Positions 4,181-39,879 of a stretch of 43,428 nucleotides of DNA are shown here, piece by piece. Position numbers and translations under genes: made by a program. This stretch comes from a candidate division WWE3 bacterium RAAC2_WWE3_1. GTDB taxonomy: Bacteria > Patescibacteriota > WWE3 > UBA101185 > UBA10185. Every line of letters begins with the position of its first letter. Position 1 is the first letter of the stretch. The DNA lies in the NCBI GenBank assembly GCA_000503835.1, contig CP006914.1, positions 111,790 to 155,217 on the forward strand, written 5' to 3'. Below the pieces are notes generated by a model that saw only the letters and a list, made by a program, of their open reading frames with translations, was not told where the DNA came from and did no database searches.

Positions 4181-4209
4181 TTGATACCAAACGCCCGGTA
4201 TGTTAACAT
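4181..4209 (+). promoter_or_regulatory. sigma70-type promoter of the small ORF at 4241
   Basis: TTGATA (4181-4186), a 17-nt spacer, then TAACAT (4204-4209) preceded by TGn (extended -10). Confidence 0.55.
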
Positions 4210-4240: not shown

Positions 4241-4414
4241 ATGGCCTATTGTAAAGAGCTGACGGAGTATTGCAGTTACTGCGGAGGGCATCTTGGCCCG
4301 ATGATTACTCTAGGAGAACGTCTCAAGCACGCCAGGGGCGACTGTGTACGAAACAGCACGCACGAGAAACAGCAAAAACAGCGAAAAGCTCAATTGAGGT
4401 TTCCGGGCGTGTAG
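4241..4414 (+). CDS. 57-aa microprotein with a putative C2HC zinc-binding motif (not in ORF track)
   Basis: Hand translation: MAYCKELTEYCSYCGGHLGPMITLGERLKHARGDCVRNSTHEKQQKQRKAQLRFPGV*. SD GGGGAG at 4230-4235 lies 5 nt before the ATG. Has its own promoter and terminator. Motif C-x2-C-x15-H-x4-C. Confidence 0.7.
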   Translation: MAYCKELTEYCSYCGGHLGPMITLGERLKHARGDCVRNSTHEKQQKQRKAQLRFPGV

Positions 4415-4475
4415 TACTTAAAGAGACAACATCCGCTGTGGTAATGGTTCAACCTCCCATCCCTATCACAGCACC

Positions 4476-4518
4476 GGGGGCTAAAAAGACTGCTCAATCT
4501 TTTAGCCCCCATTTCTTT
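4476..4518 (+). terminator. intrinsic terminator
   Basis: 11-bp stem GGGGGCTAAAA/TTTTAGCCCCC followed by ATTTCTTT. Confidence 0.75.
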
Positions 4519-4548
4519 ACTCCCTTACTGCTATATAATTAATTCATA

Positions 4549-5922
4549 ATGTCCGGGATAAAAATATTTTTAATTTCCTTTGCGGTATTTTTCGTTCCTT
4601 TTTTAATCCCAGGCTTCCGTGGCATTAACTCGCTTATCATTCAAAGCGAAGATACGGTGCCTTCTATTTTCACAACTATCTCAATTATTAAAGACCGTAC
4701 ACTTTACCTTGACAAATATTACGTAATGATGCGCGGCCGCTACCCACACCCGGATGACAAGGATTTTCAAAAGAATCTGACCCCCTTTTATTTAAGAAAA
4801 GTGGGCGGTCATTATATTACTGCTTTTCCGATTATTACTTCTATTTTGTCAGTTCCGGTTTTTACGCTGCCCCTCGTCTTTGGAATGCCGATAACCTGGA
4901 ATAACCTGGCACTGTTAAATCATTTATCGGGCGCGTTAATCATGGCATTGGCCGGGCTGTTTATGTTTAAAACTCTCCGCGAAGGATTCAACCTGGAAGA
5001 AAAAAAATCTGTAATTCTTACGGCGGTTTATTTGTTCGCTACGGTAAATTTTGCGATGATATCTCAGGCGATGTGGCAGCACGGGACACTGCAACTGTTC
5101 TCGATTTTAGGTATTTACTTTTTCCTTAAACACCAAAAAGACCAATCCGCGTATATAAAAATGTTGTTGTCCGGCTTGTTTTTCGGTTTCGCTTTTTTAT
5201 CGCGTCCGACCGCGGGTCTTCCCATTTTACTAATCGAGCTTTACCTAGTGTTTACCAACTTACACAAAACCGATAACTTATTTAAATCTGCGGTGACCTT
5301 TACTTTAGGTCTGGTTGTCGCCGCGTCTTTCTTTCTCTGGTACAACTCCGTTTATTACTACGACATACAAAATCAGGGTTATTCAAATCAGCTTTTTCGT
5401 TCGTGGCTCTCGCCTTTTCCGGTAAGTTTTTTAGGAGTGTGGCTTTCCCCGAGCAAAGGTATTTTAATTTTTTCGCCGGTACTATTCTTCTCAATTTACG
5501 GATTCTACCTTGCGATCAAAGGCAAAATTGAAAAGGCCTCTCTCTATAAAGTTTTCGCGCTCATCATCCTCCTGCACACACTTGTTATTAGCTTATGGAA
5601 GCATTGGTATGGGGGCTGGTCTTTCGGGTACAGGATGTCGAGCGATGTCCTGCCTTATTTTATATTTTTGATGATTCCTTACATTAATTCCGCGGCTTTT
5701 GAAAAAACTAAAAAACTATTTTTCATTCTCCTCGGGCTGTCGGTGTTCATTGAAATCTACGGACTTTTCTTTTTTGACGGAATTTGGCACGCCGCTTATG
5801 ATCTCGGTTACGAAAATACTTCGTGGTTATGGTCGGTAAAGGACTCCCAGTTTTTATTTGACATAAGGCGGGTAATGGTAAAACTGGGCTTGTTGATTTC
5901 GGCGTGTCCAAAGTGTTTATAG
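4549..5922 (+). CDS. multi-TM GT-C type glycosyltransferase (PMT/GPI-mannosyltransferase-like)
   Basis: 457 aa with about 11 TM segments, an acidic SEDT pair after TM1, and motifs SPSKGILIFSP and WYGGWSFGYR. Confidence 0.6.
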   Translation: MSGIKIFLISFAVFFVPFLIPGFRGINSLIIQSEDTVPSIFTTISIIKDRTLYLDKYYVMMRGRYPHPDDKDFQKNLTPFYLRKVGGHYITAFPIITSILSVPVFTLPLVFGMPITWNNLALLNHLSGALIMALAGLFMFKTLREGFNLEEKKSVILTAVYLFATVNFAMISQAMWQHGTLQLFSILGIYFFLKHQKDQSAYIKMLLSGLFFGFAFLSRPTAGLPILLIELYLVFTNLHKTDNLFKSAVTFTLGLVVAASFFLWYNSVYYYDIQNQGYSNQLFRSWLSPFPVSFLGVWLSPSKGILIFSPVLFFSIYGFYLAIKGKIEKASLYKVFALIILLHTLVISLWKHWYGGWSFGYRMSSDVLPYFIFLMIPYINSAAFEKTKKLFFILLGLSVFIEIYGLFFFDGIWHAAYDLGYENTSWLWSVKDSQFLFDIRRVMVKLGLLISACPKCL

Positions 5923-38899: not shown

Positions 38900-39532
38900 C
38901 TAATTTTTGAATCTTCTGATAACCCCAGTAACTACGCCTTGGATGCTCAGGCTGGCGGCTTCTACAAAAATAGGATCCATTCTTTTATTTGCAGGCTGAA
39001 GCCTTATTCTGCCGTCACTTTCATGGTAGAGGGTTTTAAGGGTGGCGAATTCGTTGTCTATTAATGCTACGATTATCTGACCGTCCCTGGCTGTGTTTTG
39101 CTGTTGGATGACCACATGATCCCCGTCGAAAATACCCATGTCTATCATTGAGTCTCCTTTTACCTGAAGAACAAAGCACCTTTTTGTCTTGGAAACTATG
39201 TCTGAACTTACTGTAACGGTAGCCAGCGGGTTTTCATTAGCTTCGATGGGTTCTCCCGCGGCTATAAAGCCCACAAGGGGAAGTTCCACGGCGGAAAGCG
39301 AGGAATTAAAAGTTTTATCGAGTATCTCTATGCCCCTGACCGAACCTTCGTATTTTTTAATGACGCCCTTCTTTTCCAAAGCCTGGATATGTTCGTGCAC
39401 AGTGGCTAAAGAAGAAAGTTCCATAGAATCGGCAATTTCCTGCAGCGTGGGCGAGTGGCCGTTTACCTGGATATATTGTGAAATAAAGTCTAAAATTTGT
39501 TTCTGTCTTTTATAAAGGGTTACCGGACTCAT
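38900..39532 (-). CDS. lexA: SOS repressor LexA
   Basis: HTH region SPTLQEIA, cleavage site IAAGEP, catalytic Ser in GDSM and Lys in ATLK. Confidence 0.96.
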   Translation of the reverse strand: MSPVTLYKRQKQILDFISQYIQVNGHSPTLQEIADSMELSSLATVHEHIQALEKKGVIKKYEGSVRGIEILDKTFNSSLSAVELPLVGFIAAGEPIEANENPLATVTVSSDIVSKTKRCFVLQVKGDSMIDMGIFDGDHVVIQQQNTARDGQIIVALIDNEFATLKTLYHESDGRIRLQPANKRMDPIFVEAASLSIQGVVTGVIRRFKN

Positions 39533-39587
39533 TAAAAATCTCCTGTTAAATATTTACGGTTTTTCTTTGGTTTTTCAAGTCACTTTT

Positions 39588-39617
39588 ATACTACCGAACA
39601 TTATACGAATATGTCAA
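39588..39617 (-). promoter_or_regulatory. lexA promoter containing a candidate direct-repeat LexA box
   Basis: Minus strand: TTGACA (39617-39612), 18 nt, TAGTAT (39593-39588). The spacer holds CGAAC-N6-CGAAT (plus strand 39595-39610). Confidence 0.65.
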
Positions 39618-39658
39618 GAAGAAAAATGCCGTGAAGCTGGTTTAGGGTTTCACGGCAT
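39616..39658 (-). terminator. intrinsic terminator of the 52-aa ORF
   Basis: Perfect 10-bp stem ATGCCGTGAA/TTCACGGCAT followed on the minus strand by TTTTCTTCTT. Confidence 0.8.
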
Positions 39659-39720
39659 GTGTCACCGGGCGCGGTTGTATCAGGTGGGGATCCCTAGAAA
39701 CGCCCGGCGGATGTGGTTGA

Positions 39721-39879
39721 CTAAAACACGGCGATCAATATCCATACTGCTGCTGCAAAAACATAAGTTTGCCAGGAGCTTAGTAGGAACCCGATAATCA
39801 TGAAGGTTTCTCCCCAAAAAACTTCTGTCTTAGCTCTGCGGACATCGGCTTCTATGTTTACCAACCGTTCTTCGCTCAT
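39721..39879 (-). CDS. 52-aa small membrane protein (not in ORF track)
   Basis: Hand translation: MSEERLVNIEADVRRAKTEVFWGETFMIIGFLLSSWQTYVFAAAVWILIAVF*. SD AAGGAG (39890-39885) lies 5 nt before the ATG. Has its own promoter and terminator. Confidence 0.75.
   Translation of the reverse strand: MSEERLVNIEADVRRAKTEVFWGETFMIIGFLLSSWQTYVFAAAVWILIAVF

Follow-up and report, generated by a model that had tools for sequence, protein, structure and literature searches.

Two genus-restricted tandem-hairpin 3′ ends in a WWE3 bacterium: a shared 8-mer that is probably coincidental and a candidate regulatory loop

Introduction

When two unrelated microprotein genes of one genome are both followed by the same 8-mer, a hairpin and a terminator, do they share a conserved RNA module, or have two ordinary 3′ ends come to look alike? 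The question is raised by a stretch of 43,428 nucleotides (the window, meaning the whole stretch of DNA analysed), which covers bases 111790-155217 of the single-contig genome of candidate division WWE3 bacterium RAAC2_WWE3_1. The initial annotation proposed that two units about 35 kb apart, one on each strand, carry either an undescribed conserved RNA element or the cassette signature of a family of small-gene units.

The genome of this ultra-small CPR/Patescibacteria bacterium has 878,109 bp with 43% G+C, and its completeness is 99%. A profile search of the genome gives matches above cut-off for RNase III, RNase Y and RNase J, and Hfq and RNase E/G are not found in this nearly complete single contig; the ribonuclease and Hfq background resembles that of Gram-positive bacteria. 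For Era, the genome gives just three partial GTPase-domain matches and none above cut-off, and the 16S rRNA ends in the standard ...GGATCACCTCCTTTCT.

The reading preferred here, given a probability of roughly 0.4 as a whole package, is that the two units are independent, genus-restricted tandem-hairpin 3′ ends, the first of which acts by pairing of its loop. Its parts are not equally strong: an independent origin of the units with a coincidental 8-mer is probable, and the loop-pairing regulatory role, which would make unit 1 a candidate riboregulator, is tentative.

Two microprotein genes and their 3′ tails

The two units comprise the following features.

4181..4209, + strand: promoter-like site of the microprotein-1 gene (TTGATA, 17 nt, TAACAT with TG); the block is also kept 5′ of the orthologous genes
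4241..4414, + strand: microprotein-1 gene, 57 aa, with Cys11, Cys14, His30, Cys35 and a basic tail
4429..4436, + strand: 8-mer ACATCCGC of unit 1, the last two bases of which open the stem
4435..4472, + strand: unit 1 stem-loop, 9-bp stem plus inner 4-bp stem, apical loop with CCTCC
4476..4518, + strand: unit 1 intrinsic terminator, stem-loop 4476-4510 plus T-rich tail ATTTCTTT, conserved in orthologues
39721..39879, - strand: microprotein-2 gene, 52 aa
39707..39714, - strand: 8-mer ACATCCGC of unit 2, at the foot of the stem
39663..39709, - strand: unit 2 stem-loop, GC-rich stem of 9-10 bp, 27-nt loop containing GGGATCCCCACC
39618..39658, - strand: unit 2 intrinsic terminator, stem-loop 39658-39626 plus T tail TTTTTCTT, after a linker of 5-6 nt

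The microprotein-1 gene is flanked by a methyltransferase gene and a PMT_2-type glycosyltransferase gene. The four Cys and His residues listed above and the basic tail are invariant across four aligned genomes of the genus, and a profile of the protein matches 7 of 85 family genomes, that is, all six of the genus and one of another genus (G009). The microprotein-2 gene sits between uvrB (39975+) and lexA (38900-39532, -); in an alignment of three genomes, 23 columns are invariant and the C-terminal half is hydrophobic, and the profile matches four of the 85 family genomes, every one in the genus. Neither microprotein has a family in Pfam or NCBIfam. Judged by sequence conservation, both genes are real. 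Two ORFs that overlap the units, 4270-4542 + (90 aa) and 39567-39797 + (76 aa), were rejected as noncoding, because the loop indels among orthologues are not multiples of three.

Downstream of the microprotein-1 stop codon (TAG, 4412-4414), 14 nt precede the 8-mer. The stem pairs 4435-4443 with 4464-4472 (9 bp, one G-T) and encloses a loop of 20 nt with 9 C and 2 G (4444-4463); the linker ACC (4473-4475) leads to the terminator. In unit 2, the stop codon (TAG, 39723-39721) is followed after 6 nt by the 8-mer (39714-39707), and the stem of 9 bp with two G-T pairs (39708-39700 with 39672-39664), for which RNAfold favours 10 bp and a start one base earlier, encloses a 27-nt loop that includes 10 C and 4 G. 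The lexA promoter lies directly 3′ of the unit 2 terminator (TTGACA at 39617, TAGTAT ending at 39588). The order of stop codon, 8-mer, stem, linker and terminator, with its coordinates on both strands, had been laid out correctly in the initial annotation, as had the identity of the 8-mer and of its register and the presence of stems that differ in sequence but still pair and enclose C-rich loops; all of this can be read directly. A simple terminator scanner that allows loops of at most 8 nt overlooked both terminators, whose loops are longer.

Each whole 3′ tail folds as two independent hairpins and does so better than dinucleotide shuffles (unit 1, -35.4 kcal/mol, z -5.6; unit 2, -36.1 kcal/mol, z -5.1). 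For the first hairpin alone, the values are -14.5 kcal/mol with z -4.3 in unit 1, where none of 200 shuffles is as good, and -22.4 kcal/mol with z -3.1 in unit 2, where 3 of 200 are. Both units have the build of tandem U/V-shaped terminators, with hairpins less than 50 nt apart after the stop codon and the U trail last. They would be the 3′ ends of short monocistronic microprotein mRNAs, in each of which a stop-proximal stem-loop is followed, 3-6 nt on, by an ordinary intrinsic terminator.

The shared 8-mer

If the units belonged to one module, their common 8-mer might be expected to recur in such places. Lack of enrichment had been named beforehand as the outcome that would speak against a module, and it is what the counts give. 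ACATCCGC is present in 2 copies in the window versus 0.80 expected (15 of 100 shuffles give at least 2) and in 22 copies on both strands of the genome versus about 27 expected for a random 8-mer. Those of units 1 and 2 are the only copies that are intergenic and adjacent to a hairpin; the other 20 are without a hairpin-terminator context. The register was assessed across tandem units, defined by an upstream hairpin of at most -8 kcal/mol next to a terminator-like hairpin of at most -11 kcal/mol, mostly outside ORFs of at least 110 aa, and a pair was counted when the same 8-mer lies in both members between -10 and +4 relative to the start of the stem, at positions that differ by at most 1 nt. 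There are 50 tandem hairpin-terminator units in the genome, and one pair among them, units 1 and 2, shares an in-register 8-mer, against a null mean of 0.25 (P = 0.225). In-register sharing thus arises in 22.5% of shuffles; the initial annotation had itself allowed for chance, with two copies only.

Comparison of orthologues points the same way. At the unit 1 locus, the 8-mer reads ACATCCGC in three sequences, ATATCCGC in two, and TCATCCGC, TTTTCTGC (G005) and ATTGTCTGC (G002) in one each; at the unit 2 locus, it reads ACATCCGC, ACATCTGC (two genomes), ACATCAAC and ACAGCGGC. It is exact in both units in this genome only. Both loci retain a looser A[CT]ATC[CT]GC, in relatives too close to separate constraint from shared ancestry, and the divergent G002 has TCTGC at both. 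The common 8-mer at the two stem feet is most likely coincidental; at the most it reflects a weak preference that the two have in common. The partly kept 5′ flank in both lineages (A[CT]ATCC in six of eight unit 1 orthologues, ACATC in four of five unit 2 orthologues) is, as a separate observation, unexplained by pure coincidence.

Distribution of the two hairpins

DNA searches of 60 relatives gave matches over both elements in genus members alone; two extra matches are short, one covering only the lexA promoter (G026) and one 21 nt (G058). In G001 for both units, and in G003 for unit 1, the 3′ tail and the next promoter align at 75-87% identity while the upstream ORF fails to align at the DNA level. 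Each of the two hairpins is conserved, and not just a fold that arose by chance.

Covariance models were built from six unit 1 sequences (R1) and five unit 2 sequences (R2). R1 recovers all eight unit 1 orthologues, including two metagenome sequences outside the model (E 7e-8 and 7e-7). It finds one copy in its own genome (E 7e-13, the next matches having E > 2.8), one copy in each of the six genus genomes and none in the 79 other family genomes at E up to 0.05. R2 finds one copy in each of five of the six genus genomes, with two further weak matches (E 0.013 in another genus; E 0.021, a second one in G003), about the number that chance gives over 85 genomes. Two R2 matches outside the locus were examined and rejected as members: G003:C3, from among the two weak ones, looks coding, and G000:419107-419156 (E 0.49) is a terminator in its own right whose stem is similar in part. 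Beyond the two weak R2 matches, searches with R1 and R2 reveal no further copies of either unit in the genome itself or in the 85 family genomes.

Nor do the two models recognize each other's unit in whole-genome searches at E up to 10. The sole cross signal comes from a small search of 76 kb, in which R1 matches the G003 unit 2 hairpin in the same register with 14.3 bits and E 0.1. Apart from the 8-mer, the stems, loops, linkers and terminators of the two units are unrelated, and no homology between them is detectable. A genome scan for more units started from 2401 terminator-like hairpins, which were reduced with crude ORF masks, and just the two units had an ORF, a C-rich-loop hairpin and a terminator in succession; one more candidate, at genome position 255897, was rejected as coding, lying inside a Gly-rich gene on the opposite strand. 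C[CT]TCC occurs 28 times in intergenic hairpin loops versus 23 times for an SD-like control motif, which shows no enrichment but is uninformative, given that the scan overlooked unit 1 itself. Rfam 15 gives no match at the gathering score over the whole window and none at E up to 10 at the two loci; neither hairpin is a known Rfam element.

These results bear on the possibility of one shared 3′ module, in which the foot ACATC[CT]GC would be a processing or protein-binding site and, together with the C-rich-loop hairpin and the terminator, would define a functional class; cleavage by RNase Y at the foot could, for example, release a stable 3′-derived small RNA. Such a module would account for the identical 8-mer in an identical register, for the partly conserved flank (ATCCGC in six of eight unit 1 orthologues and ACATC in unit 2, with the TCTGC of G002 at both), for the fact that the best non-unit-1 match of R1 in the small search is a unit 2 hairpin, and for the scan in which the two units stood alone, and RNase Y and RNase J are both present. 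It is nevertheless improbable: the 8-mer is not enriched and its in-register sharing is common among shuffles, no more copies exist in the 85 genomes, neither model detects the other unit at whole-genome scale, and the units differ in everything but an 8-mer that is exact in both only here. Covariance models are poor at linking hairpins that have a loop motif alone in common, according to the available part of a study of such RNAs (PMC4615179), and their silence is therefore no argument against one functional class. A cassette family is ruled out, with one copy of each unit per genome and no cross-detection between the models.

The search for further copies that the initial annotation had envisaged thus found none in the genome itself or, with the two models, in the 85 family genomes. 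The idea of a conserved RNA element is supported for each hairpin taken by itself and not supported for one shared element. With the shared module not supported, what most likely remains is two lineage-specific tandem-hairpin mRNA tails. The main value of the analysis is in this sense negative: ordinary tandem-hairpin 3′ ends and a chance 8-mer, with no new cassette or RNA family.

Covariation in the unit 1 hairpin

For unit 1, eight distinct orthologues are available, from six genus genomes and two metagenome contigs; of six loci retrieved in a search, two pairs are identical and two repeat G001 or G003. Compensatory changes on both sides are present in five of the nine stem pairs, both in a MAFFT alignment of six sequences and in a model-fitted alignment of eight. 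In the latter, which leans towards structure by construction, 95.8% of cells are paired, and the covariation score of 0.47, as compared with 0.06-0.27 in slid controls, is reached by none of 500 shuffles. The G-U pairs are compatible with the sense strand only. The unit 1 hairpin therewith behaves as a conserved RNA structure. The stem core of unit 2, in contrast, is invariant (CCGGG/CCCGG in all five orthologues), which makes its covariation uninformative: two of nine pairs, with 41-51 of 500 shuffles as good. For the check by covariance models foreseen in the initial annotation, the outcome was accordingly divided, with covariation in unit 1, none to be read from the invariant stem of unit 2, and two models blind to the other unit.

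The same changes speak to the question of whether the elements act as DNA, for example as an operator or inverted repeat for a regulator, as a recombination site or as the boundary of a mobile cassette. The next promoter does follow the inverted repeats at a distance of about 60-110 bp, and in unit 2 both the stem core and the loop palindrome GGATCC are invariant or nearly so. Both elements are single-copy with the same neighbours in every genome that has them, however, and therefore not mobile; a spacing of 20-45 bp between the arms would be unusual for a dimeric regulator; the arms of unit 1 change with complementarity kept, and their G-T pairs work as sense-strand RNA only; and ARAGORN finds no tRNA-like att target. 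A DNA-level element is barely credible on these grounds.

A tRNA-like or minihelix reading of unit 1, suggested by a stem followed by ACC and a loop with TTC, was also tried and rejected. ARAGORN finds no tRNA gene in the window. The T-loop consensus is TTC followed by purine-A, and in three of four close orthologues the TTC is not so followed; the T-loop positions are not kept.

Resemblance to the 16S rRNA tail

Another reading addresses the foot motif and the loops together. Both elements may mimic the 3′ tail that ends the organism's 16S rRNA, a stretch that begins with the 3′ strand of helix 45 and includes the anti-SD, and so serve as a decoy or competitor for a reader of that tail. The foot motif resembles ATCTGC(GG) and the loop resembles GGATCACCTCCTTT, the tail region being ATCTGCGG...GGATCACCTCCTTT within the last ~30 bases; ATC[CT]GC with the 5′ arm would copy the helix 45 3′ strand, and GG[AT]TC...CC[TA]CC would copy the anti-SD tail. 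The readers decoyed could be SD sequences, a maturation nuclease or an assembly factor. GAUCACCUCC plus helix 45 is reported to be read by Era (Tu et al. 2011).

Alignment to the tail beats dinucleotide shuffles in several orthologues, with P = 0.001 and 0.003 for units 1 and 2 of G002, P = 0.005 for unit 1 of G003 and P = 0.017 for unit 1 of G004, and an HMM of the unit 1 5′ half ranks the 16S tail 10th genome-wide. The likeness of the loops and the shared 8-mer would then have one cause. As tests, however, the orthologues depend on one another, and P is 0.069 (unit 1) and 0.24 (unit 2) in this genome and as high as 0.94 over the 13 sequences; the nhmmer match to the 16S tail is at E = 54, and the tail is missing from the top 25 of the unit 2 HMM. 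Era, the known tail reader, has been reported to bind RNAIII in vitro, as far as the available portion of that report goes (PMC4435603), but the want of a match to it above cut-off in this genome disfavours an Era-binding mimic. The mimicry reading is very improbable; were it true, control linked to the ribosome through a 16S-tail decoy, in a CPR bacterium that lacks Era, would be of a new kind.

The unit 1 loop and its possible partners

The part of unit 1 that varies least is in its loop. CTCC (CUCC in RNA), the anti-Shine-Dalgarno core, is kept in all eight orthologues while the stems vary, and it is unpaired in the MFE and consensus folds; [TC]GGT[TC]C precedes it in six of the eight. The conservation of a 4-mer is weak evidence, since the eight unit 1 and five unit 2 orthologues are all closely related. 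Unit 1 is, on the whole, a covariation-supported structured element that is absent from Rfam and has an anti-SD core in its loop.

In the preferred reading, the large, G-poor and C-rich loop of the first hairpin would be its working part, and the stem would serve to display it, given that the loop is 20-45 nt long and constrained in sequence. Through CUCC, the unit 1 loop could pair with the G-rich ribosome-binding regions of mRNAs and block initiation without Hfq, and RNase III could cut the resulting loop-mRNA duplex; the mechanism is modelled on RsaE/RNAIII, 6C, the cuckoo RNAs and the icaR 3′UTR. That the loop pairs with RNA, that it does so in cis or in trans, and that unit 2 has any such role, we infer from these features.

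As to partners, the CTCC of unit 1 can pair with the GGAG of its own gene, and the loop is predicted to pair with its own start region at -10.8 kcal/mol, which 34.5% of 811 start regions equal or better. The start regions of the downstream genes pair no better with the loops, and inspection by eye across orthologues showed no extended or co-varying complementarity between loop and start. Complementarity alone is no proof, because any anti-SD-like loop pairs with any SD.

The absence of specific complementarity to the own or a downstream start region is consistent with a purely structural role as well. The units would then be tandem terminators of which the first hairpin aids termination, insulates the next promoter or blocks 3′-to-5′ exonucleases; the loop would have no specific partner, and its C-rich, G-poor make-up would just keep it unpaired. 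Tandem hairpins after stop codons are common, as the available parts of two surveys indicate (PMC3013805; PMC8355165), this genome has its 50 tandem units, and both units lie directly before the promoter of the next same-strand gene, where tight termination matters. A small loop would be expected of a purely structural element, however, and loops of 20-45 nt, as they are across the orthologues, weaken a hairpin and are needlessly large for such a purpose; CTCC is invariant in the eight unit 1 loops although five of nine stem pairs have changed; and a strong canonical terminator forms independently only 3-6 nt further on. A plain structural role (termination, insulation, exonuclease blocking) is doubtful on this evidence, and nearly as likely as loop pairing by unit 1.

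Should the CUCC loop of unit 1 prove to be active, the hairpin would be among the first candidate riboregulators in CPR/Patescibacteria; no description of riboregulators in CPR was found in a brief survey of the literature.

Comparison with known systems

Dual-function RNAs such as RNAIII/hld and SR1/SR1P combine a small ORF with a regulatory RNA domain. The units are like them in that a monocistronic transcript of ~300 nt holds a small ORF and a structured 3′ domain ending in a terminator, and differ in that the regulatory activity of the RNA part would here be putative.

Tandem U/V-shaped terminators provide the closest match in architecture. WebGeSTer counts 100,364 U-shaped terminators among 1,228,606, according to the portion of its report available to us (PMC3013805), and hairpin clusters less than 15 nt apart are given for two-thirds of termination sites in the corresponding portion of Gupta and Pal 2021 (PMC8355165). 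Like the terminators of this class, as far as those portions define it, the units have a U trail and two hairpins closer together than 50 nt, the spacing here being 3-6 nt; unlike it, the first hairpin has an unusually large loop of 20-45 nt and, in unit 1, the invariant CTCC, neither of which the class needs (PMC3013805, PMC8355165).

In the loop, unit 1 is closer to the C-rich-loop riboregulators. As described in the accessible parts of the respective papers, an unpaired UCCC motif of RsaE blocks initiation complexes (PMC2790875), the 6C sRNA has C-rich loops and is chaperone-independent (PMC6486639), and the cuckoo RNAs have variable stems and a common loop motif (PMC4615179). Unit 1 shares with RsaE/RNAIII (UCCC), 6C and the cuckoo/CcsR RNAs (CCUCCUCCC loops), to the extent that these parts describe them, an unpaired C-rich loop near a terminator and a loop motif kept while stems vary, in a genome without Hfq. 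In contrast to the cuckoo RNAs, for which those excerpts give 2-4 hairpins, and to 6C with several loops, there is one C-rich loop per transcript here, and the terminator loops are without the motif; in addition, the unit 1 hairpin is in the 3′UTR of a coding microprotein mRNA and has no match among Rfam families.

The icaR mRNA of Staphylococcus aureus offers a precedent for action in cis: its 3′UTR pairs with its own SD, with RNase III involved, in the part of the report at hand (PMC3868564). Unit 1 likewise has a C-rich 3′UTR motif complementary to an SD in a genome with RNase III. Within what that part of the report covers, the differences are that pairing with the own start region is here matched by a third of genes in unit 1 and is below that of most genes in unit 2, and that the 3′UTR here is ~100 nt long (PMC3868564).

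Unit 2 and its neighbour lexA

The unit 2 loop (CCCCACC) is C-rich without being an anti-SD sequence, and its predicted pairing with the start region of its own gene is -5.8 kcal/mol, a value that 91.9% of the 811 start regions equal or better. Pairing of the GGATCC of this loop with the ribosome-binding site of lexA was considered and rejected: the site is present in G004 only and is not conserved. In G002, the unit 2 hairpin and terminator are kept before lexA without a microprotein-2 homologue or a convincing ORF there, and the hairpin is therefore not a mere appendage of that ORF.

Microprotein 1 and the gene downstream of unit 1

4241-4414, + strand: apparently unannotated gene for the 57-aa microprotein 1
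4530-4551, + strand: TATAAT and start of the PMT_2 glycosyltransferase gene

The 57-aa product of unit 1 is retained in all six genomes of the genus, in one further genus, and in metagenome contigs, and no Pfam or NCBIfam family was found for it. Its invariant residues include Cys11, Cys14, His30, and Cys35, a set that, judged by eye from the sequence, is zinc-ribbon-like, and at the end of its basic tail a PG dipeptide precedes a single hydrophobic residue (PGV in this genome). Beyond unit 1, a perfect TATAAT (4534-4539) is followed, just 9 nt later, by the PMT_2 glycosyltransferase ATG at 4549, which is preceded by no Shine-Dalgarno sequence; the mRNA is probably leaderless, and orthologues keep this block.

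Microprotein 2 and the region upstream of lexA

39721-39879, - strand: gene for the 52-aa microprotein 2, flanked by uvrB and lexA
39588-39617, - strand: lexA promoter block, TTGACA ... CGTATAAT[GA]TTCGGTAGTAT
L010 1150-1560: tract preceding lexA in the genus relative G002

Microprotein 2, the C-terminal half of which is hydrophobic, turned up in four of the six genomes of the genus and in no other of the 85 searched from the family, and its gene has its own promoter-like -10 and Shine-Dalgarno sequence upstream. Its position between uvrB and lexA suggests a putative SOS-linked small membrane protein. The lexA promoter block, located 3' of unit 2, is near-identical across five genus genomes, with a similar version in G026, a genome of another genus; the block is a candidate autoregulatory operator. 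In G002, the unit 2 hairpin and terminator are retained ahead of lexA, and about 250 nt containing several small GC hairpins stand in place of the microprotein 2 gene; since no convincing ORF was found in this tract, it may represent a non-coding transcript.

A partly similar terminator and RNA-related proteins

G000:C1:419107-419156, - strand: terminator 3' of an unrelated gene

This terminator of the same genome was matched by R2, the covariance model built from five unit 2 hairpins, at an E-value of 0.49. Its stem and loop partly resemble unit 2 (GCCGGG ... AAGGATC ... CGCCCGGC), a likeness that is probably due to chance.

Searches of the whole genome found neither Hfq nor RNase E/G, and no Era above the curated cut-off, with only three partial GTPase matches. 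RNase III, RNase Y, and RNase J are encoded, and the RNase III gene is closely followed by a 97-aa ORF that gives a KH-domain-like match (424533-424718, G000:C1).
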